Assembly (NCBI GenBank): GCA_947259225.1
Contig: CAMYLK010000009.1
Span: 17,599 to 81,598, forward strand
Length of the DNA: 64,000 bases
DNA from: an uncultured Desulfobulbaceae bacterium
Lineage (GTDB): Bacteria; Desulfobacterota; Desulfobulbia; Desulfobulbales; Desulfobulbaceae
Reading direction: 5' to 3'
Shown here: one piece after another, positions 7,401 through 56,200 of the stretch
Numbering within the stretch: position 1 is the stretch's first letter
Layout: the number at the start of each line of letters is the position of its first letter
The notes under the pieces: model-generated
Seen by the model: the letters and a program-made list of their open reading frames with translations, nothing else
What the model was told of the DNA's origin: nothing
The model's database searches: none
Position numbers and translations under genes: made by a program

Positions 7401-7604
7401 AGCTCTGGGTTAGATATAAAAAGATTGATATGTTTTTTATTACTTGTTCATTTATTGGAGCCGATTTTTTCATGCTAAAGCATCTTACCGAACTTGCAAA
7501 GAAAAAATTGAAAAGGCTTGCGCTTCACATGTTTTTCAATAATATAGCCTGAGCGGGTAGAGAGTGTACCCTTGTCTTAAAAAAATTACTGGAGCGCTGG
7601 AACC

Positions 7605-8798
7605 ATGAGCGAATATAAGGTGAAAAAAAGCTACGCTGAAATTAATGCCCGCATTAAAGCCGGAGAGGCTGTTGTGGTCACCGCCGAGGAAATGATTGAC
7701 ATTGTCGATCAAAATGGGCCGGTGGAAGCGGCACGTAAGGTTGATGTGGTGACCACCGGTACATTTTCAACAATGTGTTCTTCAGGGGCTTTCTTCAATT
7801 TTGGCCAGACAACCCCGACTATCAAGGCTGCAAAAGTATGGGTCAATAAGGTTCCGGCTTATGCAGGACTTGCCGCAGTTGATATCTATCTTGGGGCCAC
7901 GGAACCGTCTGAAGATGATCCACTTAACAAGGTATACCCGGGCGAGTTTCGTTACGGCGGTGGACATATTATAGAAGACCTGGTTGCCGGTAAGAAAATA
8001 TTTCTTGAAGCAAAAGCCTATCCCACTGACTGCTACGCAAACAGAAAATGCAAGAAAGAGCTTACGCTGGCAGATTTACCCTATGCTCTTCTATGCAACC
8101 CACGTAACGGTTATCAGAATTATAACTGCGCTGTGAATTTATCAGACAGAACCATTTATACGTACATGGGAACACTGAAACCGCAGTGCCGTAATGCAAA
8201 TTACTGCAGTGCAGGTGAATTGAGTCCGTTGATGAATGATCCTTTTTACAGGACAATCGGTTTGGGAACCAGGATATTTCTTGGAGGGGGAATCGGGTAT
8301 GTAACCTGGAACGGCACCCAGCATAATCCCGGCACCCCGAGGAGTGAAAACGGAACCCCGAGACGGCCTTCCGGAACATTAATGGTCCAGGGTGATCTGA
8401 AACAGATGTCTGCCCGGTGGCTTCGCGGGGTAAGCCTGCAGGGTTACGGCTGTTCAATTGCGGTGGGCCTGGGGATTCCCATTCCTGTTCTTGATGAGGA
8501 AATGGCCATGTTTACCGGTGTGTCGGATAAAGATATCTACACCCAGGTAGTCGATTATGGCAATGATTATACCAACGGCATCCAGCGGAATTACGGTGAA
8601 GTCAGCTATGCGCAACTTCGATCCGGAGAGATTGAAGTGGCTGGTAAAAAGGTGCCTACAGCTCCTTTGTCCAGCAGAGTAAAGGCCCTGGAAATTGCCG
8701 AGTGTCTGAAAAAATGGATTGTAGACAGGAAGTTCGAACTGGGAGAACCGGTGGCGCATTTCCCCACGGTTGATTACTCTACGGATATTAAAGAATAA
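7605..8798 (+). CDS. COG1900/DUF39 family protein (homocysteine biosynthesis-type sulfur incorporation enzyme)
   Basis: 397 aa. N-terminal block AVVVTAEEM...VDVVTTGTF and overall resemblance to the methanogen/Desulfobacterota COG1900 family. No fused CBS or ferredoxin domain visible. Confidence 0.7.
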   Translation: MSEYKVKKSYAEINARIKAGEAVVVTAEEMIDIVDQNGPVEAARKVDVVTTGTFSTMCSSGAFFNFGQTTPTIKAAKVWVNKVPAYAGLAAVDIYLGATEPSEDDPLNKVYPGEFRYGGGHIIEDLVAGKKIFLEAKAYPTDCYANRKCKKELTLADLPYALLCNPRNGYQNYNCAVNLSDRTIYTYMGTLKPQCRNANYCSAGELSPLMNDPFYRTIGLGTRIFLGGGIGYVTWNGTQHNPGTPRSENGTPRRPSGTLMVQGDLKQMSARWLRGVSLQGYGCSIAVGLGIPIPVLDEEMAMFTGVSDKDIYTQVVDYGNDYTNGIQRNYGEVSYAQLRSGEIEVAGKKVPTAPLSSRVKALEIAECLKKWIVDRKFELGEPVAHFPTVDYSTDIKE

Positions 8799-8828
8799 CC
8801 GTGCACTTATTATTCAGGTGATATAGGC

Positions 8829-9629
8829 TTGCATTTAACGGAAAAGAAAAAAAAACTTTTTCAGATTCTTGAAGAATACGGCAGTGTTGCTATTGCCTTT
8901 TCCGGCGGAGCCGACAGTTCTCTGCTTCTCCGGTGCGCCATTGAATCGCTGGGGACGGACAGAATATTAGCTCTTACTTCCAGGTCCTGCCTGCTTACTC
9001 AACAGGAAATTGTCAGGGTAAGCGACTGGTTTCCCCGTAACACTCCTCATTTGGATATTGATCACGAGTTTGTAGATTTTGATCCGCTTGCCCGGGATGA
9101 ATTTGTCTCTAATCCGGCAGACCGCTGTTATCTCTGTAAAAAAAGAGTATATGGCCTGTTTTTTGACAGGGCCGTAAAGAAAGGGTTTCATACCCTGATT
9201 GACGGAACAAATGCAGACGATATGAAAAGTGATCGTCCCGGATTAAAAGCATTGCGGGAACTCCAGATAGGTACGCCCCTTGCCGATGCCGGTTTTTCAA
9301 AAGATGAGGTGCGGACCCTGAGTAAAGAAATCGGATTGAGCACGTGGGAGCAGCCGACATCATCTTGCCTGGCAACCCGAATACCAAGCGGGCTTCAAAT
9401 AACCAGGCAGAGAATTAATACTGTTGAAAGGTGTGAATCGGCCTTGATTGAAATGGGGTTTGCAGGTTGCCGGTTCCGTCTTGACCGACTTGATCCTGAA
9501 ACCGGATATGTTCAAGTGCAAACACAAGATGTTGTACGCATATCACAGGATGAAGCCCGCTGTAAACTACTTGGGATTTTTAATGATTTCGGTATGAAGC
9601 GGGTGTATATCGATATGTATGGCCGATGA
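8829..9629 (+). CDS. LarE-like ATP-dependent sulfur transferase (PP-loop ATP pyrophosphatase, TIGR00268-like)
   Basis: 266 aa, TTG start. PP-loop AFSGGADSS. The LarE-type SSCLATR cysteine plus an upstream CYLC pair gives three conserved Cys. Confidence 0.75.
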   Translation: MHLTEKKKKLFQILEEYGSVAIAFSGGADSSLLLRCAIESLGTDRILALTSRSCLLTQQEIVRVSDWFPRNTPHLDIDHEFVDFDPLARDEFVSNPADRCYLCKKRVYGLFFDRAVKKGFHTLIDGTNADDMKSDRPGLKALRELQIGTPLADAGFSKDEVRTLSKEIGLSTWEQPTSSCLATRIPSGLQITRQRINTVERCESALIEMGFAGCRFRLDRLDPETGYVQVQTQDVVRISQDEARCKLLGIFNDFGMKRVYIDMYGR

Positions 9630-9835
9630 TCTATATCGAGGTTTAGAGGAAACAATATAGTTACATTCGTCTAAAAACATGCACTGTTGGGAGAAAACGC
9701 ATTTTTTCCTTTGACAAAGTATTTTGTTTTGTATTAAATCAAACAATATCGATGACAGGTTGTAAAAAAGGATTTACACCTGACCAGCCTTTGGTGCCTC
9801 GGTGGCAATACTCTTAAAAAGAACGGGAGGGAAGT

Positions 9836-10111
9836 ATGAACAAGAAGGAATTAGTTGAAGCTATGGCAGGTGCAGCGGATATTAGTAAAGCCGCAGCAGA
9901 AAAAGCACTGAACGGCATGCTGATGTCCGTTACAAAAGCCCTGTCCAAGGGTGACAAGGTAACACTTGTTGGTTTTGGTACCTTTTCTGTTGTGAAACGC
10001 GCCAAGCGTAAAGCCAAAAACCCGCGTACCGGCGAAATGATTAAAATTCCTGCCAAGAAAGTTGCAAAGTTCAAACCAGGTAGCAAGCTTGCCGATGCTG
10101 TAAAAAAATAA
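9836..10111 (+). CDS. hup: DNA-binding protein HU
   Basis: 91 aa. [37 protein letters not shown] arm motif. Confidence 0.95.
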
Positions 10112-10137
10112 TTTTTTACAGAAAGAATTTTTTAAAA

Positions 10138-10170
10138 CAGCTGGCAATTTTGCCGGCTGTTTTTTATTTT
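10138..10170 (+). terminator. Rho-independent terminator after hup
   Basis: CAGCTGGCA-ATTT-TGCCGGCTG stem (9 bp, one G-U) followed by TTTTTTATTTT. Confidence 0.8.
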
Positions 10171-10183
10171 GGAGTATCGAAGT

Positions 10184-10260
10184 CGGGAAGTGGCTCAGTC
10201 TGGTAGAGCACAGCGTTCGGGACGCTGGGGTCGGAGGTTCAAATCCTCTCTTCCCGACCA
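10184..10260 (+). tRNA. tRNA-Pro (anticodon CGG)
   Basis: Hand-folded 77-nt cloverleaf. Acceptor CGGGAAG/CTTCCCG, U8, D arm GCTC/GAGC, anticodon stem CAGCG/CGCTG with loop TTCGGGA (CGG, G37), T arm GGAGG-TTCAAAT-CCTCT, discriminator A, encoded CCA. Confidence 0.92.
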
Positions 10261-10581
10261 GTTTTCAACTCAAACCACCAGCACAGAAAAGACTCTACCA
10301 ATCACAGCACAGCATTTATTTCTTCTTTTTCTCGAAGAGCAGTTTCTCCCCATCGAAATTGACATTTCTCAGTCAAAATTCATATAATTTAAACAGGGTA
10401 TAACTTTTATTCCATAACGGTTTATATGAATGGATGAAATGATTTTTTTATTTGTTTCATCCTTTTATACAAGTACGTATCATGTATGGGGAAGTAAGGA
10501 TGGGTTAAGCAGCCGAAGCTTATTTTTGGGTCAGTCTAAATTGAAGATGTTTTGACAGTAAAACTTTTCAATGAGGTGGAT

Positions 10582-12000
10582 ATGAATTTATTTCTTCTCC
10601 AGAAAAATGATAAAGGTCCTGGTTCTGTTTTTGCCCGAATTTTTCAATTTGTATTTTGCGGTGCCTTTATTTCTTTAATTATGTCATGCAATGCTCCAGT
10701 TACATCAGGTACATCTGGTATGATGAATGGTGCACGGTCAACTGCCTCTTCCCCTGTAACTGCTCAGGGTGATTATCAGGCTTCGTCTACCTGTAAGAAC
10801 TGCCATGCTCATATCTTTGAACAGTTTCTTGAATCAATGCATGCAAATTCATATAAGAACCCGGTGTTCAATGCTGAATTTTACAAGATTCTGTTACCGC
10901 GCTTTGAAGATGGTGAAGACCTCTCAGGTGAAGTGAGGGCTTGTATAGCATGCCATTCACCTGTAACCTATAGCCAGAACAGTGGAAATATTTCTTCGGT
11001 TAAGGGTGTTGGGCGTGATTTGTCAGGTGTTGAATGTGATCTTTGCCATACAATAAGAGGGTATGATGGTTCAAAACCGGAAGGTGGAAATTATATATCA
11101 AGTCCCAGTGAACAGAAATTAGGACCCTTTCAATATGAGAGCAGTCATCACCGTGCCTACTCAGAATTGCAGACAAAAAGTGAAATTTGTGCAATATGCC
11201 ATAACAGAACTAACCGTTTCGGCCTTGAAATAATATCAACCTTCTCGGAATGGAAGAAGAGTCAGTACTCCAAAAGGGGCATCGAGTGCCAGAGCTGTCA
11301 TATGAATATACAGGGATTCCTTACAGCCGGACAACCTGTATATGAGTCCGGCGAAGCAGCGCAGGCAACCTTGATCAAACCCAAAAACAGATCCAAGATT
11401 TACACACATCGTTTTCCAGGAGCACATTCAGAGTCTCAGGTGAACGGAGCTATTCAGTTGGACATACAGGTCAATGAGCCTGCAGTTGAAGCCGGCAAAG
11501 AGATGATGATTTATGTGAATGTGGACAACTCCAGGTCAGGTCATAAACTTCCGACGGGGAGCGCTGAACTCCGGCTGCTGTACCTTGATCTTGTCGCGGA
11601 AGTCGCGGGGGAAACAATTCCTCTTGCGGCTAATTCACTTGATAAGGAAATGTTTGACGTTTCTGGTAAGGGAAAATTTGATTCAATTGTTCTGAAAAAT
11701 GATATACCCGAAGGCAGGCGAGTTTACCGTGCCATCTGTCTAGATAATGAAGGACAACAGACAGTTTTTTCATTTGATGCCAAGGAAATTTCCTTTGATA
11801 ACCGTTTGCAGGCAAGTGAAGTCAGGAAGGAATTCTTTACATTTCAGGTGCCGGATGATGTTGGTTCGGAATTTTATCTTGTCGCCACTTTAAATTATCT
11901 CCGCTATCCCAGCTCCTTTGCCTATGAACTGGGCGTTCCCAAGGCAAAGACCGTTGAATTGGCAAGTGTTCGAAAAAAAGTGGTGTTAAACAGGCACTAA
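10582..12000 (+). CDS. Membrane-anchored pentahaem c-type cytochrome with non-haem C-terminal domain
   Basis: Five CxxCH motifs (CKNCH, CIACH, CDLCH, CAICH, CQSCH) and an N-terminal hydrophobic anchor. ATG at 10582 is preceded by GAGGTG. The ORF-track start at 10552 is a TTG without an RBS. Confidence 0.8.
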   Translation: MNLFLLQKNDKGPGSVFARIFQFVFCGAFISLIMSCNAPVTSGTSGMMNGARSTASSPVTAQGDYQASSTCKNCHAHIFEQFLESMHANSYKNPVFNAEFYKILLPRFEDGEDLSGEVRACIACHSPVTYSQNSGNISSVKGVGRDLSGVECDLCHTIRGYDGSKPEGGNYISSPSEQKLGPFQYESSHHRAYSELQTKSEICAICHNRTNRFGLEIISTFSEWKKSQYSKRGIECQSCHMNIQGFLTAGQPVYESGEAAQATLIKPKNRSKIYTHRFPGAHSESQVNGAIQLDIQVNEPAVEAGKEMMIYVNVDNSRSGHKLPTGSAELRLLYLDLVAEVAGETIPLAANSLDKEMFDVSGKGKFDSIVLKNDIPEGRRVYRAICLDNEGQQTVFSFDAKEISFDNRLQASEVRKEFFTFQVPDDVGSEFYLVATLNYLRYPSSFAYELGVPKAKTVELASVRKKVVLNRH

Positions 12001-12354
12001 TAAGAGACGGCTGGTCCAGTGCCTGGCAAATTATATTTTCGTTATTTTATTAATTAGGGTCCCCTCTATAATTTAAGGACGAGCAGTCTGGTTTCAGTTG
12101 GTGCCCTTATTCGTTTGTCCTATGTTTATCTGACTTACCCGTCTTCCTGCCCTGATATTTTCTTCACACAGTATTTACTGGGCCATTAATTGTTGCGAAA
12201 CACATCCTGTTTTCTTGCACATGACTTTATTGGTGCGATCCATGTCAAACGGCCCAATTAATCTTTTGACCTGCAGTTAGTAATGATTACTCTTCTAGGA
12301 AAGGGCAACGGTAATATGTTTGTTTGCTATATACTTGGAGTGTGCTCGGGAGGT

Positions 12355-13419
12355 ATGAAAATGAGTATGTTGAGCCTTATTTTATCAGTTTCTGCGGTTC
12401 TTTTTTTTGGTGTCAGTCCGGTATACGCTACCAGAACAAGGACAGCCGTTTTTGCAGGAGGCTGTTTCTGGTGCATGGAACCTCCTTTTGAAGAGATCGA
12501 TGGAGTCATAGACGTCAAGGCAGGCTATACAGGTGGTGATGTGGAGAATCCTACCTATGAGCAGGTCACCGGAGGAGCGACCGGTCATTATGAAGCAGTT
12601 CAGGTTGTGTATGATCCTGATGTTGTGGACTATGACGAACTCCTGAATGTATTCTGGCGCCAGATTGATCCCACTGATGACGGAGGGCAATTTGCAGACC
12701 GTGGATCACAGTATTTCACGGCTATTTTTTATCTGGACGATGAACAGAAAGAAAAAGCTGAGGAATCAAAGAAACAGCTTGATGCTTCAGGAGTATTTGA
12801 TAAACCGGTAATGACTGCTATCCTGCCGGCGGTTCCATTCTATCCAGCCGAAGAATATCATCAGGATTATGCCCGGAAAAATGTTTTACCTTATTCAAGG
12901 TATAAAACAGGTTCCGGACGTACCGGGTTTCTTGAGAGAACATGGAAAAATAATGAAGATGTGAATTTATCCACCAGCACCTTTCACAAGCCATCCGCTG
13001 ATGAACTGAAACAAATACTTTCTCCCATTCAGTATAAAGTAACCCAGAAGGAAGGTACGGAACCACCCTTTAATAACGAATACTGGAATAACAAAGAAGC
13101 GGGAATATATGTTGATATCGTTTCCGGTGAACCTCTATTTTCTTCTACTGACAAGTTTGATTCAGGAACTGGATGGCCCAGTTTTATCAGACCTGTGACT
13201 GAAAACAATGTTCGTGAAAAGAAAGACCGTAAATTGTTTTCTGTGAGGACAGAGGTGAGAAGCCGTACTGGAGACTCACACCTGGGGCATGTGTTTGAGG
13301 ACGGCCCGAATCCGACCGGTTTGCGGTACTGCATAAATTCCGCATCCCTCCGTTTTATCCCGGTTGATAAGCTTGAGGAGGAAGGCTTTGGCCAATTTCT
13401 TGATCTGTTTGAAAAGTGA
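12355..13419 (+). CDS. msrAB: Exported bifunctional peptide-methionine sulfoxide reductase MsrA-MsrB
   Basis: MsrA motif GGCFWCME. MsrB motifs [13 protein letters not shown] and RYCINS. The N-terminal signal/anchor is [28 protein letters not shown] 12355 is preceded by GGGAGG. Confidence 0.88.
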
Positions 13420-45600: not shown

Positions 45601-47429
45601 ATCCGAGAAGCACCATGAACATTATGACAGGTAATACACGTCGTTTCGGAATCATAACTATCAATACCATCAGAGTTCCAGGTATTGGTAAAGCCTATGT
45701 TGTGTATATCAACAAGATGGTCCCAGTGAGCATTTGCAGGAGGGGCCCCATAGCCATCTTCGCTCAAGTTACGAAACCCTGTCGAGATAGTCCCCGCATT
45801 TTTGTAGGGGTTGGTCGAGCAATTATATAACCCGCTTGCCTTCGTATCACTCAGCAGGTTATTTTCGCTGTGACATTCAAAACAAAGCCTGTAATCATTG
45901 CTGTCGTAGCCGCATTGGTCGCCTGTTTTGGGTATAGCCATGGGGGGCTGCCCGCCAACTGATTTAAGACGAAATGCTGCCTGATAATTATTGGAGGCTG
46001 CAGCATACGACCTGGCGTTATCAAAATTATGGTCCAAGGTGACCCCGTGACATTCACCACATTCTTTAGCTGCACCGGCTCGGCCGTGACCGGATGCATA
46101 GTAACCCCAGGTGGAATTGTTTCCTGCCACATCAGGTGCCTGGCGACCATTAATTACCGAATTGCCCGAGTCATGACAGGTGACACACCATTTCTCTTTT
46201 CCTGCAGTGAGTGATATGCCGGTATAGACACCGTTAACCCAGTTGCTCTTGGCGCCGACAACAGCATCATCAACGCCGTCAAAGCCCCCTCCGGGGCTGT
46301 GACAGTCATTACAGATGTCTGTCTGGGCCAGGGTAAGTTCAGCGTTCGGGTCAGCCTTGGACCGAAAAAACGGGAAGTTGGTTGTGTTATGACAGTCTTC
46401 ACAGTCAAGAATCGGACGGGGGCCTATAAGTTCATCGTCGCTTTCCGTGTGAATGGAATGCGTCTCATAAGTCCCTGCTCCTCCTGTCAATCCACCGTAT
46501 CCGGCATCATGACCATGACATTCACCGCATCCTGTTCCAGAGCCTCCTCCATGGGCAAAGCCACCTTTGTGGCTGTGGCAGTCAATACAGTCCGTTTCTG
46601 ATGCTCCTCCCACGTTTGTATGGTATTGGTCACCGCCTGACCCGTCATTCCTGAAATGCGTTGTCTCAGTATGACAAACCTCACAAATACCATCATAAGT
46701 CGTGTCACCATCGACAAAAGAGTTCGTACCGGTACTGCTGAATAACTTGACGGTCATGATGTCAGTTTTGTCCTGGGGAACGAGCGGATCTGTGATAGCA
46801 GCAAGATCAATGGAACTCTTGACCAGCTTACCGTAACTGATGGCAAAGGTATCACCAGCACCAACGATCCCAAGATCCATGGGTATATGCACAGTCAATG
46901 TATCTGTAGTGTTGCTTGTAATCCTGTAGCTGACCATTGGCTGGGATGTGTCCGGGAAAACAACCAGCCCAGCAAACTCATCCGGTGTCCAGCCAGCGCC
47001 ACTTTTGGAGATCGTGGTCAGGGTGACGCCGGTAGATACATTCTCGTAGAGATAGCTCGCGGAAGCGAATGTCTGGGCCTGCTCATGAAAATGCGGATCA
47101 TGGCAGACTATGCATTCAACCGTCCAGCTGCCGTAGTCGTCATCAATCTGGGAACTGGAATGGGTCATAACCTGGACGGCATCGAGGCCGTTATGACAAC
47201 TCCAGCAGAGTGAATTGAACTGGGTATCGTCGTCAACCGGATCACGATGAGTCCATGGTGGCAGAAGTTGTGGTTCGGTACCATAAACGTAATGACACGA
47301 ATCACATTCGATGTTGTTCTGAAAAAAATGGGGATAGCCATCAGCAATGGCCGAAGTTGTAAAAAGACAAAAAATAATTACTGCTGCAGGGATTGACATA
47401 AACCCCGCAACTGGTTGTGCGGCCCTCAT
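42618..47429 (-). CDS. Secreted 13-haem c-type cytochrome fused to tandem Ig-like modules and a C-terminal parallel beta-helix region
   Basis: 1603 aa, GGAGGAG RBS, signal peptide. 13 CxxCH motifs, all within aa ~40-660. Gly-rich inter-haem loops (CIDCHSHKGGFAHGGGSGTGCGECHG). Two ~210-aa repeated modules, then PbH1-type repeats (NNYIGL..., DNIISGNGTGIYV..., GNIFGYY...). Confidence 0.85.
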   Translation of the reverse strand: MRAAQPVAGFMSIPAAVIIFCLFTTSAIADGYPHFFQNNIECDSCHYVYGTEPQLLPPWTHRDPVDDDTQFNSLCWSCHNGLDAVQVMTHSSSQIDDDYGSWTVECIVCHDPHFHEQAQTFASASYLYENVSTGVTLTTISKSGAGWTPDEFAGLVVFPDTSQPMVSYRITSNTTDTLTVHIPMDLGIVGAGDTFAISYGKLVKSSIDLAAITDPLVPQDKTDIMTVKLFSSTGTNSFVDGDTTYDGICEVCHTETTHFRNDGSGGDQYHTNVGGASETDCIDCHSHKGGFAHGGGSGTGCGECHGHDAGYGGLTGGAGTYETHSIHTESDDELIGPRPILDCEDCHNTTNFPFFRSKADPNAELTLAQTDICNDCHSPGGGFDGVDDAVVGAKSNWVNGVYTGISLTAGKEKWCVTCHDSGNSVINGRQAPDVAGNNSTWGYYASGHGRAGAAKECGECHGVTLDHNFDNARSYAAASNNYQAAFRLKSVGGQPPMAIPKTGDQCGYDSNDYRLCFECHSENNLLSDTKASGLYNCSTNPYKNAGTISTGFRNLSEDGYGAPPANAHWDHLVDIHNIGFTNTWNSDGIDSYDSETTCITCHNVHGASRISGGPTIKMTRTSLDIVHSNDASGDYGADGPDSAFNCLNCHGGGGGGKYYYIAPPGLASIAIEDNNSSDPLPAETNYTNNNNITVTLDGYADPTEMICAQDGAFSINLQPDNGGDGWGPYASSFTYPISGTDGSYTIFCKTRNALGESLPRNDTITLDTTIPTVGTSALTSPNGSEIWNQGTTRFITWSGISDTNLKSPFPINLVYSTDSGTSYPFSISSSEGNDGTYTWVSVPLIVSSTVRVKITATDRAGNQNSDESNADFTIQAFTPSLWDFTLTDNSADPAAAETGFTNNRTVDVAITAQAYPDEMILAEDSGFSQNSTGWIPYNDSTTYTLSDSDAEKTVYIKVRNEAGESGTINYTIELDRGAPNVAADDLLSPNGAEVWQEGDTTRQITWANGDISDTEGNLKASPIMLDYSVDSGSTFPGSIAANEANDGSYDWNPIPKPASYRTRVQLTVTDKAGNQTSDSSDADFLIKPPAAYIVTNTNDSGGGSLRQAITDLEIAGGDDSIWFDIAPGSLTNGVALINVATILPTVAADGVTIDGGSQAALHGDTNPKGPEIRIHGTYGFDGLNVTGDNVTVRGLQVTNFYFYGIDMSSANNCVLEGNHVGFWSDSNSGYTKTGGSNYYGVKVNGANCRAGGDEDVFDRNYISGNIRDGMYVPSSSNVTIQNNYIGLLPDGAAMSNGFSYDGIGLSGSNGVIKDNIISGNGTGIYVGSTTGPLSITGNIFGYYFDGTTWHDRVQQNYWAIRINSTSAGNITIGGPNVATDDNTLNDSNVFSVKASGTGNQGSAISVYHNNASPTKIYGNFFGTNPELDEIFPGKYGVYLTGFRGSYTLVGGSTDDDPDGAGNVFANMTANGVYVADGANEVRIIRNSFYNNGTEGALSDDGIYLDGTANNSIIRPTITAADTSWITVDNVVSGDTVEVYISDYDGTGTAYGEGKIFIGSTTASGSSVDVDVSGSGVAIGQWVTSIRLDPSNNTSPFSSNFQIP
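44165..45440 (-). repeat. Tandem in-frame duplication of a ~210-aa two-domain module inside the giant cytochrome gene
   Basis: Module A has LTSPNGSEIWNQGTTRFITW...DRAGNQNSDESNADFTI. Module B has LLSPNGAEVWQEGDTTRQITW...DKAGNQTSDSSDADFLI. The boundary lies near 44790. Confidence 0.75.
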
Positions 47430-47571
47430 TGTTCTCCTCCGATCAAAACTGTTCCGCTCTCATACACCCTGAAGAGGTCAAGGAAAGTAATAGCTTAGAG
47501 AGAGCAGCAACAGGTTTTTGCCTTCTGTAAAGGCAGTCCCTCAAACACGTATGATACTTTATTCATCATTA

Positions 47572-47601
47572 ATGTTACATCTATGCAACTTGTGAAGTCA
47601 A
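47572..47601 (-). promoter_or_regulatory. Putative sigma-70 promoter of the giant cytochrome gene
   Basis: Minus strand TTGACT-18 nt-TAACAT, ~140 nt upstream of the ATG. Pattern match only. Confidence 0.35.
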
Positions 47602-47704
47602 GGATTGTGGAAAAATGGGCTCAATTTTATCAGGAATAAGGGAGGGATGGTGAAGCAGGGTTGGTAAGCTGTGAAATAATCTGCTGGACAGTTATTATCA
47701 GATT

Positions 47705-47735
47705 ATGGTCGGCAGCCTTGTTGACTGCCGACCAT
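47705..47735 (-). terminator. Hairpin terminator after the rhodanese gene
   Basis: Perfect 11-bp inverted repeat ATGGTCGGCAG-N9-CTGCCGACCAT, 12 nt past the stop. The U-tract is weak. Confidence 0.55.
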
Positions 47736-47746
47736 AAATGTAGATG

Positions 47747-49060
47747 TTATTCTTCTATTTCACATTCTTTTCCTTCGCATTCAACATCAGCGACCAGAAA
47801 CGAAGCCTTATATCCGTCTTTCTTCAGTTGCTTGTAGGCCATTTCAGCCCTGGCACCAGTAGAACAGTGGATATAGATTTCTTTGTCTTGGGGGAGCTCA
47901 CTTACTCTTTTCGGCAGTTCATCCAGAGGAATGGTAACGGCTGCGGGATACTTTCCTGCTGCAATTTCATCGTTTGTCCGGACATCAAGAATGACAGCTT
48001 TTGATGACCCGGCTGCCGCTTTTTCAAAATCAGCAGCACTAACTTCGCCCTTGCCAAGTTTTCTTTTCCAGTTAATTTCGGTCACAACCGGCCCTGACTC
48101 AAAATTGCCGTCTGATTTCAGCCAGCGATTGAGATCTCCATAAACCAGTGATGCTTTTTTAAAACCTTCCTTGCGGAGTTTTTCGAGAGCCTTGAGCGCC
48201 TGTTTTTCATCGTCGCTGTATAGGACGACTGGAGCTTTTGTCGGGATATCTTCGAGCTTGTCACCCAGAGTATCATAAGGGATTGTAACTGATCTTGGGA
48301 TACGGGATTTTTCCGATTTTTCAACTGATCGCAGGTCAATAAGAACAATATTTCCCTTGCTGACAAAACCAGTGGATGCATAAGTCGGGTTCCCGTCTTT
48401 GATCCAGGCAGGTTCTCCCGCAAGCATGACCTTTACGTTTTTGTATCCTGCTTTTTTCGCCAGACCGGCGGATTTCGGGCTCATGCCTCAGGTGTAGCCC
48501 CCGCAGTAAAATACCAACAACTTGTCCTTGTCAGCAGGTAGGAGTTCAGGTAACTTGGTTTTCATCTGCTCGACAGTGATGGATATCGCTCCGGGAAGAT
48601 GAGATTGAGCGTAGCGCTTTGTCGGTCGGGAGTCGATGATCACCATTGCGGCGTTCTTGTCAATAAGCTTTTTTACCTCTTTCGGCTTGATTTCAACAAT
48701 ACCCTCAGGCAGTTTGGCAAGCTTGGGTTTAACAACGGTTGCAACTTTATCACTGCCCCGCATTTCCCATGTAATTATTGTTGCCTCTCCTTTTCGGGCA
48801 TGATCCATTCCCTTGGTCTTGCCGTCAAACTTGACCATCATGGTTTTGGCTTTATCACCCTTGCCAACCTCAATTGAAATGGTTTTTGCTTTTTTTGATT
48901 TGCCGACAATTTTACCTTTGTAAACGTTAGCAGCCTGCTTTTCTGCAGCAGGATTCATAGCCGTGTCAGGGGGAGCTGTTTTGTTCTGCGCGCATCCCCA
49001 TGTTAACACCGTTAACATGATGCATAACGGTATAAACTTTGTCAATTTTTGCCTCATCAT
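47747..49060 (-). CDS. Triple-rhodanese lipoprotein with predicted selenocysteine in the first active-site loop
   Basis: The 190-aa and 245-aa track ORFs share one frame and are separated only by TGA (48490-48488). Joined reading: ..LLVFYCGGYT-U-GMSPKSAGLAKKAGY... U-GMSPKS aligns with the rhodanese C-xxxx-[RK]-S loop. Lipobox LTWGC. Domain 2 is inactive (LYSDDE). Domain 3 has IHCSTGARAE. Confidence 0.7.
48458..48470 (-). promoter_or_regulatory. SECIS-like hairpin downstream of the in-frame UGA
   Basis: mRNA CGCC-GGUCU-GGCG. The GGUCU apical loop starts 25 nt from the U of UGA. The E. coli fdhF SECIS carries GCA-GGUCU-GCA with the loop one codon closer. Confidence 0.45.
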
Positions 49061-49432
49061 TTTACCTCCGAAAAATTAAGTTTTTCTTTCCCCCTCATAA
49101 CTATCTATAAAAACAAAAAAACAGTTTGATATGATATGCCCTCAATGTGGCATTACGGTACAATGTTTCCATTTGGAATTATTGAAAATATTTTTTAAAA
49201 AAAACTCAAAATACAAAAAAAATACAAATAATAACAATTAATTATACGTTTCATATTACACTTTTGTTATTTGCGAAGTCAAGGTGATTTGCCGTTATAA
49301 AAAGAAAATTTCAGTGAGGGGCGAGTCTCACCTTTTATTCCTGTTCATTCGGTATGTTATCTGATAGAATTTATAGTATCGCTAAAGCAACAGCAGTTGC
49401 ACATTCTTTTCTTTTATTTAAGGAGGTATGTT

Positions 49433-49651
49433 ATGGCAGGGAGCGTTTACAAGCTTATCGAACTCGTAGGAACCAGCAAGAAATCCTGGGAGGATGCAGC
49501 CAAGAATGCTGTTGAAACAGCAGGAAAGTCATTAAAAGACCTGCGGATTGCCGAAGTAACAAAGCTTGATATGCAGATAAATAAGGGAAAAGTGGTAGCC
49601 TATCGCGCCCGGATCAGTGTTTCGTTTAAGTATTTAATGAAAAAGAAATAG
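49433..49651 (+). CDS. Dodecin-family flavin-binding protein
   Basis: 72 aa. MAGSVYKLIELVGTSKKSWEDAAKNAVETAGKSLKDLRIAEV. AGGAGG RBS 6 nt upstream of ATG 49433. Confidence 0.8.
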   Translation: MAGSVYKLIELVGTSKKSWEDAAKNAVETAGKSLKDLRIAEVTKLDMQINKGKVVAYRARISVSFKYLMKKK

Positions 49652-49701
49652 AGGTACAACGAACACTAGTCTAAGACAATTTTCTAAACTTAATTGAATC
49701 T

Positions 49702-49731
49702 AAAAACCGGCTTGTTGGGCCGGTTTTTTTT
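49702..49731. terminator. Bidirectional rho-independent terminator between convergent genes
   Basis: AAAAA-AACCGGC-TTGTTGG-GCCGGTT-TTTTTT, with an A-run on one side and a T-run on the other. Confidence 0.75.
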
Positions 49732-49760
49732 ATGTTGATTAACTGGAGAACAAGGAAGGG

Positions 49761-50882
49761 CTAATGTTCAAGGGCCTGGAATTTTTTCATGAATTTGCGG
49801 TCTATATAATCCTTTAACAGGAATGCCGGTCTCCCGCCGAAGAGAAAACATTTTTTACGAAAAATTCCGGTTCCGTCTCCAAGGTTGAATATGAGCAGGT
49901 AGTCACCCCCGGGCTTGAATTCCATGAGTTCTGTTCCGTCCAGAGAGGCCATTATGTTATGGAGGATGATCGGATTTTCGCGTACAGCATACACGCCCAC
50001 CTTATCAAGAGGTTTTTCTTTAAAGTGGATACAGTCACCTCCACCGAATATATTCGGGTAATCAGTGCTCTGGAGGTATTTGTTGACCATAAGCCCTCCA
50101 TCAGGCCCAACAGCAAGTCCTGACTCTTTGAAAACAGGGGAGGGCTGAACCCCAACAGCTACAAAGATGATGTCTGCTGGAAATGTCTGGCAGGATTCCA
50201 GCTCAATGATACCGTGTTGGATAGTTGAAACATTGCTCTGCTCGAGAATTTCGATGTTGCGGCTGACAAGGGATTGAATAGCCCTGGCACGGACCCGCTG
50301 CGGAAAGCCAGCCATAATGGTGGATCGGGAAAATATCTTGATGTCAGCAGGATGAATATTTGACTTGTTGGTCAACCCCCATACATTACCTGCAATTTCC
50401 ACTGCTGACGGCCCGCCACCTATAACACAGACTTTCACAACGTTATCAGCAGACAGTTGCAGGATTTTTTTCCTGGCTTCCGCCAGACGTTCTATGGGCT
50501 TAACAGGAAAAATGTTTTCAGAGTTGTCTGTAATTATTGATTCCGGAACATAGCTCCCGATGTTGAAAGAGATCGTATCGTAAGGGACTGTTTCCCCAGA
50601 TTCAAGATGTATGATGCAGGCATCAGGGTCAACCTTCACAACTTTGCCCAGGATGAAAGTGCCGCCATGCTTGTCGACAACGTGCCGGGTCGAAAAGCGT
50701 ATCTCTTCCGGGGAGTACATATTGCCGAGCATTCCCGGGCCCATACCAGAATAATAGTGGTATGGTGAAGGCTGGATAACAGTGACCTGATACCCTTTTT
50801 CAACAAACTCATTAAGGTGGGCCAGGGCCATCATGTGAGCATGCCCCCCGCCTGCGAGCACGAGCTGCTTTGTCATATCCAC
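49761..50882 (-). CDS. FAD-dependent pyridine nucleotide-disulfide oxidoreductase (type found N-terminally fused to SelD; TIGR03169-like)
   Basis: 373 aa. LVLAGGGHAH dinucleotide motif, YYSGMGPGML block, second Rossmann VIGGGPSAVE, GGGDC near the C-terminus. Confidence 0.65.
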   Translation of the reverse strand: MDMTKQLVLAGGGHAHMMALAHLNEFVEKGYQVTVIQPSPYHYYSGMGPGMLGNMYSPEEIRFSTRHVVDKHGGTFILGKVVKVDPDACIIHLESGETVPYDTISFNIGSYVPESIITDNSENIFPVKPIERLAEARKKILQLSADNVVKVCVIGGGPSAVEIAGNVWGLTNKSNIHPADIKIFSRSTIMAGFPQRVRARAIQSLVSRNIEILEQSNVSTIQHGIIELESCQTFPADIIFVAVGVQPSPVFKESGLAVGPDGGLMVNKYLQSTDYPNIFGGGDCIHFKEKPLDKVGVYAVRENPIILHNIMASLDGTELMEFKPGGDYLLIFNLGDGTGIFRKKCFLFGGRPAFLLKDYIDRKFMKKFQALEH

Positions 50883-50894
50883 CTCTGATGTGGT

Positions 50895-51725
50895 TTACAG
50901 GTGCTGGAAAAGTTCACCCAGCTGTTTCAGGTGAGACTGTTCCTCCCGGGCTATCTGGTCAAGTACCTCGCGGCTCTCTTTGTTGGAGTTGTTTTCCGCA
51001 GCCCTGCTGTAGAGGTCAAAGGCCTGGGCTTCTATTGACATGGCCATGCCGATGACGTCCTCTTCTGAGTTTACATCAGCACCGAATTTTTGAATAAATT
51101 CTTCTGTGTTGATTCCACCCTCCATCACTGGTGAGACTATATCCCTGTCAAATTTTTCAACATCAAGGTCGTCTCCGGTTATTCTTTTATATTCTTCAAA
51201 GAGCCGGTTCTGGTGAAGTATCTCTATGGCAAAGAGCTGGTGAAAAAGTTCCTGTGACTTGGCATTGTGTATTCTGGGAATCATCTTTTTGTAAAATTCA
51301 CGCAGCCCCTTTTCCAGTGAATAAGCGACGATGAGCACTTCTTTCGGAGTTTCATTGCCGTCAAACAGATCAAGGCCCTGATCTTCAGGGCCGACAGCAT
51401 AATTACCTGTCCAAGCCTTTAATCCGCCGCTGAGGTTATAGACTCTGCTAAAATTTTTTCCGGCCAGCATTTGGGCCGCAACTCTGCTTCGTCCACCAAT
51501 AGCGCAGTATACTAACGCAGGTTTTTCCGGATCAATTTCAGATAACCGATCCTTGAGTTCAGGGAGAGGGATAAGTTTGGAACCGGGGATATGCCCGGCC
51601 TCGTATTCCTTGGGCTGTCGTACATCAAGCAGGGTGTATGAATCCGGTACGTTTTCATCAATGAATTTTTTTGCCTGAACGGCGTCCATTGATTCAACAG
51701 GTGTGAAAAATTGTTTCCAGCGCAT
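50895..51725 (-). CDS. Rhodanese domain fused to a rubrerythrin/ferritin-like diiron four-helix-bundle domain
   Basis: 276 aa. Rhodanese active loop VYCAIGGRSRVAA. The C-terminal half carries the E / ExxH / E / ExxH ligand pattern (SLEKG, IEILH, SIEAQ, EEQSH). Confidence 0.7.
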   Translation of the reverse strand: MRWKQFFTPVESMDAVQAKKFIDENVPDSYTLLDVRQPKEYEAGHIPGSKLIPLPELKDRLSEIDPEKPALVYCAIGGRSRVAAQMLAGKNFSRVYNLSGGLKAWTGNYAVGPEDQGLDLFDGNETPKEVLIVAYSLEKGLREFYKKMIPRIHNAKSQELFHQLFAIEILHQNRLFEEYKRITGDDLDVEKFDRDIVSPVMEGGINTEEFIQKFGADVNSEEDVIGMAMSIEAQAFDLYSRAAENNSNKESREVLDQIAREEQSHLKQLGELFQHL

Positions 51726-51740
51726 AGTCTTCTCAAAGTT

Positions 51741-52097
51741 TTATTTTTTTTGTTGTTGGAGCCACATATAAATATCGGCAGCATCCTGGTCTGACACCTG
51801 CTTCGATTCAAATGTTGGCATAATGGCTGAATTAGGATTTCTCAGTTGTTTGAGAAAACGAGTGTAACTCAGAGAAGTCCCGGCAATGACAGGCGCTTTG
51901 CCGCCAGTTCCTTTTTCGCCATGGCAGCCGTTGCACCGGTTCATCCTGAACCATCTTTCACCATTTGCGGCATTACCTTCAGGCACCTTGCCGCAAGCAG
52001 ACAACATAAGAAGAAATACAGCAGACAATGCACATAATAAAGCTCTGATCTTCAGTTTCACAATACAATTCCTGCAATTGTATAAGACAAAGGTCAA
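51741..52097 (-). CDS. Monohaem class I c-type cytochrome (lipoprotein/exported)
   Basis: 118 aa. One CNGCH motif, a distal Met candidate (AIMPTF), and an LMLSAC lipobox-like signal. The start codon is uncertain. Confidence 0.75.
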   Translation of the reverse strand: MTFVLYNCRNCIVKLKIRALLCALSAVFLLMLSACGKVPEGNAANGERWFRMNRCNGCHGEKGTGGKAPVIAGTSLSYTRFLKQLRNPNSAIMPTFESKQVSDQDAADIYMWLQQQKK

Positions 52098-52253
52098 TCA
52101 CCAAAGGCAAGTATAAGACTCATATTATTCTAGCTTCTCTGAGTGTTCCATCCAAGGAGTTTTTATGTAAAAGAAGTGCTGTTGAGTAGCTTATTTATTC
52201 CATGTCCGGTTTTCGCCTGACGTATTCCACACGAGGGAGACCGCTCTTGAACT

Positions 52254-53162
52254 CTATGTTGACCTTGATTGATTTAAGAGGTCCTCAAGGGCACCTGAAA
52301 GGTTTTGAAAAGAAAAAGGGTATCCTGATTGGATGATTTTTTCGGGAATAACCCTCTGTGACCCTGTAACAACTGTGGCAAATTCCCCAAGTGCTGCCCG
52401 GAGGACAAAATCCGGTACTGGAAGAATGGCTGGCCGATGGAGTGCCCCGGCAATCTCACGTGTAAACTGCCGGTTGGTGACTGGTGACGGAGATACGCAG
52501 TTTAACGGTCCATGCAGTGTTTTGTCTGCCGCGGCATGAAGCATAATTCCGATCATGTCATCTATGTGTATCCAGGACATGTACTGATGACCATTTCCCA
52601 GCCTGCCGCCCAGTCCCAGTTTAAAGGGAAGCAGCATTTGTGACAGGGCACCGCCATCGGCTCCCAGTACGACCCCTATGCGAAGAGACACGACCCGTAC
52701 ACCAAACTCTTCAGCTCTTCCGGCCTCATTTTCCCAGGCAACGCAGACTTCAGAAAGGAAATCGTTGCCGGGCTTTGAGTTCTCTGTCAATTCTTCGTCA
52801 CCGCGTGATCCGTAATACCCGATGGCAGAGGCACAAATCAATGTTCGAGGCGGGTGCTCGAGCTCTCCCATGGCACTCACAAGGGAACGCGTTCCTTCCA
52901 CCCGGCTTTTTTTTATGCGTTTTTTCTTGGCCGCATTCCATCGTCCTTTATACACAGATTCTCCAGCCAGGTGAAAAACCGTGTCAACTCCATCAAATAT
53001 CTTGTGTGAAAATGGTTCATCAGGATTCCACTGAAAGGGTGTAACGTTACCCAAAAGCTGTTTGATTCTCTCAGGGTTCCTGCCAACAACGACGGGATGG
53101 TCAAGTTTTCGTATTAAATGCTGACCGACAAAGCCTGTACCGCCGGTAACCAGACAGTGCAT
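52254..53162 (-). CDS. TIGR01777-family NAD-dependent epimerase/dehydratase (SDR with DUF1731 C-terminus)
   Basis: 302 aa. VTGGTGFVG Rossmann motif, and the size and C-terminal block are typical of YfcH-like proteins. Confidence 0.8.
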   Translation of the reverse strand: MHCLVTGGTGFVGQHLIRKLDHPVVVGRNPERIKQLLGNVTPFQWNPDEPFSHKIFDGVDTVFHLAGESVYKGRWNAAKKKRIKKSRVEGTRSLVSAMGELEHPPRTLICASAIGYYGSRGDEELTENSKPGNDFLSEVCVAWENEAGRAEEFGVRVVSLRIGVVLGADGGALSQMLLPFKLGLGGRLGNGHQYMSWIHIDDMIGIMLHAAADKTLHGPLNCVSPSPVTNRQFTREIAGALHRPAILPVPDFVLRAALGEFATVVTGSQRVIPEKIIQSGYPFSFQNLSGALEDLLNQSRST

Positions 53163-53299
53163 AATTTACTCCAAGTTAGTAGTTTTTACGCCGAAGGACT
53201 GTTCTCGATGATCCAGATGAATGAAAACACTCAAAACGTAATCAATTACGTATTCTAACCCATGACATAACAATTCACAAAATGATATTAATGAGTGGT

Positions 53300-56200
53300 T
53301 TACTCTACACGAAGACAGATATTTTCTACATCCAGCCATTTTTTTTGTAATCGTTTTTCTGAAACAGGTATTTTGGTACCAATTTCAGGTGCAAAAACTG
53401 AAATCCTGTACTCATCAACCAGCACTTTATATTCATCGATAACCTGCTTACACTCTGAAGATTCATGCTGGATTTCAGGAAAATTTTTTAGCCGATGGGC
53501 AGCCTTCATGATAAGTTCTGCTTTGCGGGTGTCTTTGGCGGGAGAATGCTTTGCCCGTTCAATACGAATTTCCAGGGCTTTGAGGTACCTTTCGGTTTCA
53601 GCAAGATCGCTGAATTTTTTCTCAGAAAGAAATGTTTGCGGCAGCAGGAGTTCAAGATGATCCTTGAAATCAGTTGATTTTACGTAAACAGCCCCTTTTA
53701 TCCCTGATCCTTCGGTAATAAGAGTATTTAATCTGCGTCGCAAAGCAAGCAGCTTGAGGATATGTTCTATGTGACTGCGACCACACCGGATGAGTCCTTT
53801 TTTTGCTGTTTGCGCAGTTATCCTTTCAAAGGTATTTCTATCAGGTAAAATGTCAGGGTGAATATCAAATATGTCGTTAAGGATAAAGTGCAGAATCAGC
53901 TTCTTCAGATCTCCGGGAGTAGATGACAGCCCGAGGGAAAGCCATGAAGCGGAATGGCTGGTGAGTGCAGCCTTGCATTCCCTGGCAAGTGCTTTAATTT
54001 CTGTTTTAAACTGCAAACCATACAGAAAACGCATTCCGTTCATGTTGTGTTCTATACTTTTGTCCTTTTCCGCAATATAAGTGAGTTCTACACACCTGCC
54101 TGTTTCGTTGACTATCAATGCCGGGTAAAAAAGATTCTGTCCAATGTCACCGTGGTGGTTAGTTGAGAGTGGTTTTGGCGGGACATCAAATTCCCAACTT
54201 GTAAATTGTATAACATCGGGCAGGGTGATTTCCTCCAAAGTATCTTTGCCTGGGGAGCGAGAATCAAAAGGACAGCTGAGCAACTCGTTGAATGAACGAG
54301 TGAGGATAACAATGTCACCATTATTGTCTCTCAGGCGAAATCGCATTTTCAGGTGAAGAGAAAGCTTGCCAGGCTGCCAGTCGGTTCGATGCACCTTGAT
54401 CTGATACATTTTGAAAATAGTTTTCTCAAGAGCTGCGTAAAGTGATCCCTTATACAATTCAAGCGAGTCCAATATATTTTCTGCAGCTTCGGGAAGGGGA
54501 ATCAGGCGCCGCCGCAGTTTTTTTGGCAGGTACTTGAGCAGGGTATGAATCTTTTCACCGAGCAGTCCCGGTACAAGCCATTCGAACTGAATCGGATTTA
54601 TGGTCCGCAGGTGAGATAAGGGGATATCAACAGTTATGCCGTCAGCCTCATGGCCCGGTTCAAAGCGGTAGGAAAGCGGCAGGGTAAGTGCCATGGTTTT
54701 GAGTGATTGAGGATACTGGTACAGCTCATTGTCCAACGGTTGATCTCTGCAGATATCACTTTCACTCATTTTAAGAAAGTCATCGCCCCTGCTTTTTTTG
54801 ATAGCCCTGTTTAAAGTATAACGATCATAAACCGGGCCAAGCCGCTTATCGTAAAAGTCATACAGGGCAAAATCATCGAGGACGATGTTCTTCCTCCGGG
54901 TCCTGTCTTCCATGTTCCGGAATTTTTTCAGAAGTGAAATGTTGTGTCGCAGAAAAGCATATCTTCCACCAAGATCTCCACGCAACAGGGCCTGATGGAT
55001 AAATATTTCGCGGGATTCGCCGGCAGTTGTCTTGTTGATCCTGCCATAGTTGACCCTTCGACCTGCGATAATGATCAGGCCAAATAAAGAGACCTTTTCA
55101 AATGCGACTACCTGGCCTGATTTTTTTTCCCAGTGCGGATCTGACCAGCTTCGTTTACAGAGTTCTCCGCCGATTATTTCCAGCCAGTCCGCGTCAATGA
55201 CAGCTATATTCAACGCGTAAAGTCTTTTGGTCTCCATGAATGAAGCGGACATGATCCACTGGCCGGCCTTGTTAAAGAGAGCAGAGCCCGGGAATATCAT
55301 AGCCTCCCTGTTGCCTCGGATTCTGTAAATATTTTTTTCCTTTTTCTGGGCTATATTCCTTAAGAATCCGCTGAGCAGGGATTGGTGTATAGCTTCATAT
55401 GTTGCAGGTTTTTCATTATCATGAAATTTTTTGTTATGTTTGGTCAGGTCGGTGATCTGCTCATGAATATCAAGCCATTCCCGCATGCGCTGCCAGGAGA
55501 GATAATGACTTGCGCAGAATTTTCTGAGTTTTGCCTGTGACCTGACCTTTCTCTCCGTGGAGTGAAAGGTTTCCCAGATTTTCAAAAGTCCGAGAAAATC
55601 AGATTTTTTATCCAGAAAACGACGATGCATTTCGTCGGCCTTGTCTTCTTTTTCTGCCGGTCGAATACGGGGATCCTGTATGGATAGCCCGGCGGCAATA
55701 ACTTTGACCTCTTTGAGGGCACCGAGTTCTGCTGCCTCAATAATGATCCTGGAGATTGAAGGGTCAAGAGGGAGCCCAGCCATGATTTTCCCTCTTCTTG
55801 TCAACCTGTTATCGTGTGAAATGGCCCCAAGTTCCAGCAAGACCTTGAATCCGTCACGCACAGAATGAACAGAGGGCGGATCGATAAAAGGAAATTCCCG
55901 TGGGTCTCCGAGTTGCAGGCTGACCATCTGCAGAATTACTTCTGCAAGGTTTGAACGTTGGATTTCCGGCTGGGTATACTCTGGCCTTGTGAGATAATTA
56001 TCCTCGTCATAAAGCCGTATGCAGCGACCGGGACCGGTCCGGCCACATCGTCCTCTTCTCTGATCACTGCTGGCCCGTGAAATTTTTGAGACCTTCAGGC
56101 TGGTAGTCCTGGAACGTGGATTGTATTTTGATATACGGGCAAGCCCGCTGTCAATGACATACCTGATACCAGGTACTGTAATTGATGTTTCCGCGATGTT

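Follow-up and report, generated by a model that had tools for sequence, protein, structure and literature searches.

Which genes of a compact locus in an uncultured Desulfobulbaceae bacterium belong together, and what could they do? The locus is comprised of three genes on the minus strand at positions 49761-52097 of the window, which is the whole analysed stretch of 64,000 nucleotides (nt) on contig C9 of this genome; coordinates given below without a locus name refer to it. The genes code for a c-type cytochrome, a rhodanese joined to a ferritin-like diiron domain (the fusion protein), and a flavin adenine dinucleotide (FAD) oxidoreductase (the flavoprotein). A preliminary description treated the three as a single operon and suggested a relay of haem, diiron centre and flavin that acts on sulfur or selenium species. 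Comparison of neighbourhoods shows that the conserved unit is smaller, a two-gene cassette of the fusion gene followed by the flavoprotein gene, both products of which are predicted to be cytoplasmic.

Conservation of the gene pair

A combination of pattern and tblastn searches gave 409 genome loci, and the neighbourhood counts cover the 80 best. The flavoprotein gene lies directly downstream of the fusion gene, co-directionally and with a median gap of 47 nt, in 62 of these 80 loci, or in 62 of the 78 with enough sequence, as two loci end at a contig edge. Such adjacency is far above chance (62/80 independent genome loci), and it spans Desulfobulbaceae, many Desulfobacterales, and five Candidatus Scalindua genomes of the Planctomycetota. 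The remaining neighbours differ from lineage to lineage, and clustering of the neighbourhoods disclosed no third gene that stays with the pair. Among 80 further genomes sampled from the family, the fusion gene was found in 21, plus one copy truncated at a contig end, and the flavoprotein gene is adjacent in 18-19 of these 22. The three-gene unit proposed earlier is therefore not upheld, since the trio is not conserved and the cytochrome c gene precedes the pair only in the genus of the window.

The next commonest neighbour is a divergent open reading frame (ORF) of 237 aa, located about 550 nt upstream on the opposite strand in 13 Desulfobacterales loci (L002, L005-L015 and L018) and without a match in Pfam or NCBIfam. 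In the window genome, the pair occurs a second time, in diverged form, on the 2-kb contig C275 (1-2050, locus L110), with 46% and 50% identity. Here the pair is cut at the contig start, and a frameshift is possible near the 3' end of its flavoprotein gene. This copy could be a paralogue or a product of bin contamination (5% contamination is reported).

Rhodanese-diiron fusion protein

The fusion gene (50895-51725, minus strand) codes for 276 aa. Pfam recognizes a Rhodanese domain at residues 17-106 (PF00581, 73.7 bits; 51408-51677) and Rubrerythrin/Ferritin_2 at residues 129-270 (PF02915, 38.1 bits, cut-off 22.8), within a ferritin-like four-helix domain that covers residues 127-276 (50898-51347). 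In two alignments, of 22 and 31 homologues with 53-82% identity, C74 of the VYCAxGGRSR motif and the six diiron ligands E138, E168xxH171, E232 and E262xxH265 are invariant. The rhodanese fused to a four-helix bundle with a full E/ExxH/E/ExxH set, as it was first described, thus stands, and no ligand is lost on proper alignment. Tyr145 and Tyr239 are invariant as well, each at position +7 from the first Glu of its half-site. In the window copy the motif reads VYCAIGGRSR, and C74 (codon TGC, 51504-51506) is the sole cysteine of the protein, which carries no rubredoxin-type FeCys4 domain. The whole family includes 2456 homologues at E ≤ 1e-3.

The AlphaFold2 model of the fusion protein has a predicted local distance difference test score (pLDDT) of 79 and a predicted template modelling score of 0.77. 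Its N-terminal part is a rhodanese by fold, by a six-residue catalytic loop within the invariant CAIGGRS, and by cysteine or selenocysteine (Sec) at position 74 in 80/80 loci. In structure it comes closest to the rhodanese domains of CoADR-RHD, Npsr and CoAPR, with 30-36% identity and a root-mean-square deviation of 1.6-2.2 Å, and to that of the persulfide dioxygenase-rhodanese fusion PRF. The C-terminal part is a diiron bundle of rubrerythrin type, and its nearest solved relatives by sequence are TM1526 and a Pyrococcus COG1633 protein. Structure matches of this domain are tied at Z 14-16.6 among COG1633-type (2fzf, Z 16.6), mini-bacterioferritin, thioferritin, Dps-like, TM1526 and symerythrin structures, and the fold search assigns it to no single ferritin-like subfamily. 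Because ferritins, Dps, COG1633 proteins and erythrins match alike, the fold does not decide between reduction of peroxide or oxygen and iron handling. Residues 101-121, which link the two domains, are modelled with low confidence, yet they include the invariant A110, G112, G117 and F121, among others, and may form a docking or lid segment.

Two apparent further fusions were rejected. The 736-aa protein P0122, in which both genes of the cassette seem to be joined, is a frameshift or gene-call artefact whose residues 210-287 and tail match nothing, and P0121, a rhodanese combined with OpgC, is probably an artefact of the same type.

Alternation of cysteine and selenocysteine

The fusion gene carries TGA as codon 74 in 22 of the 80 orthologue loci (L015, L017, L023, L027, L032, L035-L037, L047, L048, L051, L054, L055, L059, L064, L072-L074, L076, L077, L079 and L080), in a frame otherwise free of stops. 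All 22 use GCU for Ala83, by which a GCAGC-N6-GCUGC hairpin is completed 16 nt after the UGA. This stem, similar to a selenocysteine insertion sequence, is fully paired in 21/22 TGA forms and in 2/58 cysteine forms, counted regardless of relatedness. The two forms are told apart by the specific 5-bp stem, but not by the minimum free energy of the 52 nt that follow codon 74. TGA codons and hairpin together show the family to alternate between Cys and Sec at the catalytic position of the rhodanese. The window copy is a Cys form, as is that of Desulfamplus magnetovallimortis, and a Sec form is present in the cultured Desulfocicer vacuolatum DSM 3385 (L077). Under standard ORF calling a Sec form appears as two pieces, one of 73 aa and one of about 190 aa. 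According to a 2026 catalogue of selenoproteins, Sec in place of a catalytic Cys is typical of redox catalysts (PMC13188914).

In locus L015 (8001-10956) of a Desulfobacterota metagenome-assembled genome the flavoprotein gene is placed between a Sec-form fusion gene upstream and a 31%-identical fusion paralogue downstream.

Flavoprotein

The third gene (49761-50882, minus strand) codes for 373 aa, and homologues indicate ATG 50876 as the likely start of the protein (MTKQLVLAGGGHAH). Its identification as an FAD oxidoreductase is borne out by Pfam (Pyr_redox_2, 1.6e-30) and by the motifs LAGGGHAH, VIGGGPSAVE and HYYSGMGPG. The TIGR03169 family, in which it had been placed, provides the best curated model, matched over its full length (positions 2-365 of 365), but the score of 250.1 bits stays below the cut-off of 310. 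Other clade members are likewise below this cut-off, eight full-length ones with 191-295 bits and the partial second copy with 164. Membership in the family thus holds as closest model only, and it is further weakened by the fold, which is that of type II NADH dehydrogenases (NDH-2), and by the lack of a fusion to selenide, water dikinase (SelD).

The AlphaFold2 model of the flavoprotein (pLDDT 95.5) contains two Rossmann dinucleotide folds and has the overall NDH-2 architecture. In a Foldseek search, the bacterial NDH-2 proteins YjlD, YutJ and those of C. thermarum and S. aureus matched it with template modelling scores of 0.86-0.90, better than SQR and FSP1. Sequence identity to NDH-2 is about 20%, with a phmmer E-value of 2.5e-18 for YjlD. 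The C-terminal helix (residues 351-372) is amphipathic, with conserved charged residues.

The only conserved cysteine is C284, located in the GGGDC motif of FAD binding, in both orthologue sets inspected (56 and 31 sequences). Residues 1-283 have no conserved Cys, there is no catalytic pair facing the flavin of the kind established for the solved SQRs, and Pfam detects no Pyr_redox_dim dimerisation domain such as CoADR, Npsr and CoAPR possess. With C284 as its sole conserved cysteine, the flavoprotein on its own cannot perform the disulfide or persulfide reactions known from SQR, CoADR and Npsr. Lacking a redox Cys, it must work as a hydride or electron transferase like NDH-2, FSP1, NorW, and rubredoxin reductase, and these are also its best structural and hidden Markov model neighbours.

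An exhaustive search for relatives of the flavoprotein gave 1276 representative clusters at E ≤ 1e-30, the best 150 of which were examined for fusions. One of the relatives, P0349 from a sister clade, is a TIGR03169-like flavoprotein with a C-terminal rhodanese. The P0349 gene (locus L085) adjoins an ArsS-like Radical_SAM+DUF3641 gene and a DedA (VTT)+DUF547 gene. In P0316, a relative is fused to the arsenosugar glycosyltransferase families TIGR04282 and TIGR04283, and in locus L112 (3253-5994) another one stands beside a gene for a 913-aa radical-SAM/methyltransferase/DUF5714 fusion.

Cytochrome c and neighbouring genes

The first gene of the run (51741-52061, minus strand) codes for a monohaem class I cytochrome c, with Pfam matches to Cytochrome_CBB3 (PF13442, 1.1e-10) and PF00034 (4.1e-8), both over their cut-offs, a single CNGCH haem motif, and an AIMPTF segment for the distal Met. 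The ORF list extends it to TTG 52097, but GTG 52061, which AGGAA precedes by 8 nt, is the likelier start and gives a protein of 106 aa with a classical lipoprotein signal (MKLKIRALLCALSAVFLLMLSA, cut before C; lipobox LSA-C). The export of this cytochrome, noted previously, is thereby confirmed. Its signal region is the strongest hydrophobic segment in the three proteins and the one strongly hydrophobic segment among them, and the fusion protein and flavoprotein possess no signal peptide or other export signal. As judged from these signals, the cytochrome is periplasmic and the other two proteins are cytoplasmic. Direct transfer between haem, flavin and diiron centre, as the suggested sulfur or selenium relay would demand, is unlikely because the cytochrome is an exported lipoprotein and its two neighbours are without signal peptides.

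The cytochrome c gene is upstream of the fusion gene in 5/5 other genomes of the genus with a readable upstream side, and in none of the loci compared from other genera or phyla. Genes for yfcH and dodecin accompany the cassette in most genomes of the genus, and the synteny with dodecin is confined to it. The cytochrome is genus-specific and outside the conserved core, and would be an accessory that acts in the periplasm.

In the window, the spacing of the three genes agrees with what had been described, 15 nt between cytochrome c and fusion genes and 12 nt between fusion and flavoprotein genes, or 18 nt if the latter is read from ATG 50876. A sequence scan found no terminator-like site between the genes. 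A bidirectional intrinsic-terminator hairpin of 12 pairs with T-runs on either side (49702-49728, both strands) marks the end of both the operon and the convergent dodecin gene (49397-49651, plus strand; PF07311, 8.6e-26), the orientation of which had been correctly recognized. The mechanical ORF start of dodecin is probably too far upstream; the likelier start is ATG 49433, preceded by an AGGAGG box, and gives 72 aa. An Rfam scan of 47000-54000 gave no match at E ≤ 0.1.

A Sec-containing triple-rhodanese lipoprotein is coded at 47747-49060 (minus strand) and lies downstream of the cassette on the same strand also in the same-genus loci L001 and L034; in L001 no dodecin gene is in between. The triple-rhodanese and cytochrome c lipoproteins, both periplasmic by prediction, may form a group of their own, apart from the cytoplasmic pair.

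Proposed function and alternatives

The reading we prefer, tentatively, is that the cassette is an NAD(P)H-driven redox-stress module and not a selenium-supply pathway. NAD(P)H would reduce the flavin of the flavoprotein, which would hand electrons to the fusion protein in the manner of NADH:rubredoxin and flavorubredoxin reductases acting on diiron proteins. Once reduced, the diiron site would act jointly with the neighbouring Cys or Sec74 (as thiol, selenol or persulfide) to reduce oxidants, for example H2O2, O2 or NO, or an oxidised sulfur species, and the outcome would be protection of oxygen-sensitive anaerobes. The rubrerythrin-like site, the anaerobic hosts, and a Sec usage as in redox catalysts speak for this reading, and the patchy spread (22/81 genomes of the family) fits an accessory stress function.

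Some of the variable neighbours are of relevance here. Genes for TrxC, the fusion protein, the flavoprotein, and a DedA(VTT)-fused reductase similar to MerA, RclA and GR follow each other on one strand in four Desulfobacteraceae loci (L057, L058, L076 and L077, about 7100-12540); the flavoprotein gene of L058 looks split or frameshifted. In all four Scalindua-type loci (L050, L053, L056 and L070) a cytochrome c' gene comes after the flavoprotein gene, and this is a second, independent link of the cassette to a c-type cytochrome. Upstream, L050 and L070 have genes for both a sigma-54 response regulator and a PAS histidine kinase, and L056 only that for the regulator; L053 and L056 begin too near a contig end to reveal the rest. 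TrxC, the reductase, regulators, cytochrome c' and dodecin point to oxidant stress.

Several observations weigh against a redox-stress module. Each of the stress-related neighbours occurs in just 4-7 related loci. Pairing is not obligatory, as 16 of 78 fusion genes are followed by other genes; a flavoprotein homologue is present elsewhere in 9 of these 16 genomes and none at E ≤ 1e-40 in the other 7. Flavoprotein orthologues (52-56% identity) also exist without the fusion in seven genomes of the family, and such genes come after ureF-ureG, lpxB, or the radical-SAM/methyltransferase/DUF5714 gene. No rubredoxin or other electron-transfer domain lies between flavin and diiron site, so that direct transfer has to be assumed. 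The part of the rhodanese residue in the proposed mechanism is vague, and iron handling is as compatible with the diiron fold as peroxide reduction. Prediction of a complex of the two proteins (score 0.06, mark 0.32) counts neither way.

A split reductase of persulfide, polysulfide or perselenide is possible, if rather doubtful. Cys or Sec74 would carry sulfane sulfur, the flavoprotein would reduce it to sulfide at the expense of NAD(P)H, and the diiron domain would be auxiliary. The similarity of the rhodanese to those of CoADR-RHD, Npsr, CoAPR and the persulfide dioxygenase fusion, its sulfurtransferase-type loop CxxGGRS, and the common superfamily of the flavoprotein with the single-chain enzymes Npsr, CoADR-RHD and CoAPR are in accordance with it, and P0349 joins a TIGR03169-like flavoprotein and a rhodanese covalently. 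However, the redox Cys by which Npsr and CoAPR attack the persulfide is missing, its region reading HYYSGMGPG, there is no dimerisation domain, and the invariant diiron site is left unexplained.

It is unlikely, in our estimate, that a diiron centre driven by an NDH-2-fold flavoprotein acts directly on a Cys- or Sec-bound chalcogen, as persulfide or perselenide, and so represents an undescribed type of enzyme. If true, sulfate reducers and anammox bacteria would possess a diiron-dependent sulfur or selenium redox chemistry without characterised precedent.

Mobilisation of iron and sulfur for the repair or assembly of iron-sulfur (Fe-S) clusters is improbable. The diiron domain would hold or oxidise iron, the rhodanese would donate sulfur, and the flavoprotein would supply the electrons that reduce Fe(III) and S(0). 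Analogues of such a system are bacterioferritin with Bfd and its reductase, and the diiron repair protein YtfE. The diiron domain has mini-bacterioferritin, thioferritin and Dps-like cages among its best structure matches, its ligands are those of the bacterioferritin ferroxidase centre, and genes for the metal transporters MntP and ZIP lie downstream where the flavoprotein gene is missing. Nevertheless, the conserved neighbourhood contains no Fe-S scaffold, cysteine desulfurase or ferredoxin, cage formation by the fusion protein is without support, and a protein with a single Cys is unable to scaffold a cluster itself.

Reduction and trafficking of metalloids, with selenium carried for SelD or with arsenic and selenium detoxified, is very improbable. 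It is suggested by TIGR03169 as the best model, with Ndh-SelD fusions documented (PMC2398784), by the association of flavoprotein relatives with organoarsenic genes (P0316, the P0349 locus, L112), and by the presence of selD over the cut-off in 44 of 50 fusion-bearing genomes. This co-occurrence says little, since selD is near-universal in these Desulfobacterota, and selD is never adjacent to the cassette in the 50 genomes. In the window genome it is on contig C4, away from the cassette on C9, and carries one in-frame TGA. The five Scalindua genomes with a complete Cys-form cassette have no selD over the cut-off, and one sub-threshold match to the AIR-synthase family was their only trace. None of the 150 best flavoprotein representatives carries a SelD fusion, and the conserved neighbourhood has no ars or sel genes. 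Together with the sub-cut-off score, these results largely refute the earlier view of a SelD-associated flavoprotein. At the superfamily level, the tie of these flavoproteins to genes of selenium and arsenic metabolism remains a real lead (PMC2398784).

Finally, that the two genes are unrelated neighbours and the flavoprotein a general NDH-2-like quinone reductase, as its fold, its amphipathic helix, orthologues in other contexts (after ureFG or lpxB) and the sometimes solitary fusion gene might suggest, is very unlikely in view of order, strand and tight spacing held over two phyla at 54-70% protein identity while other neighbours change, of the duplicated cassette within the window genome, and of the flavoprotein gene between two fusion paralogues in L015.

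Comparison with known systems

The annotation of the locus is corrected on two points, as the cytochrome c is outside the system and the label "SelD-associated" is unjustified for this flavoprotein. What remains is a two-gene module with a Cys/Sec active site, present in hundreds of genomes of anaerobes, including sulfate reducers and marine anammox bacteria. With a two-gene cytoplasmic core and cultivable carriers (D. vacuolatum and D. magnetovallimortis) it is directly testable. In agreement with the preliminary description, a partial literature search gave no paper on the rhodanese-diiron fusion or the cassette, nor did the curated libraries contain a characterised system of such composition.

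Npsr of Shewanella loihica (3nta), CoADR-RHD (3icr) and CoAPR (8a56) resemble the cassette in combining a flavoprotein of two dinucleotide folds with a catalytic rhodanese. Here, in contrast, the two are separate proteins, the flavoprotein is without redox Cys, evidence of a CoA-type site or dimerisation domain, and the rhodanese has a diiron domain as fusion partner, which those enzymes do not have. Rubrerythrins and erythrins with NADH:rubredoxin oxidoreductase, and flavorubredoxin with NorW, share with the cassette a diiron-carboxylate site (plus Tyr), an NAD(P)H flavoprotein, and occurrence in anaerobes. They differ in that no rubredoxin domain or gene is found here and a rhodanese takes the accessory position; the fold search does not tell an erythrin from a mini-ferritin. 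Fusions of persulfide dioxygenase and rhodanese (BpPRF, 5ve3; CstB) likewise combine a similar rhodanese domain with a non-haem iron domain, and an SQR-type flavoprotein is often found beside them. Their iron domain is a mononuclear metallo-beta-lactamase fold, whereas that of the cassette is a diiron helical bundle, its flavoprotein lacks SQR cysteines, and its hosts are strict anaerobes.

Flavoproteins of TIGR03169 and Ndh-SelD fusions (PMC2398784) are alike in the end-to-end match to the best model and in the HYYSGMGPG and GGGDC blocks. They are set apart by the score of 250 versus 310 bits, by the lack of SelD fusion or adjacency, and by the existence of the cassette in genomes without a detected selD. 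For the Sec form, the nearest published class is that of the UxxG rhodanese-like selenoproteins (forms 2 and 4 in the 2026 catalogue, PMC13188914), with which the orthologues share VY-U-AxGG and the hairpin similar to a selenocysteine insertion sequence. The window copy differs by its Cys, and the catalogue entries examined mention neither a diiron fusion nor a flavoprotein partner. The single domains and the Sec-rhodanese class are therefore already known, but the diiron fusion with a dedicated NDH-2-fold partner is undescribed in the literature and libraries searched, and the cassette brings three well-understood cofactor chemistries, flavin, diiron, and persulfide or selenol, into a new arrangement.

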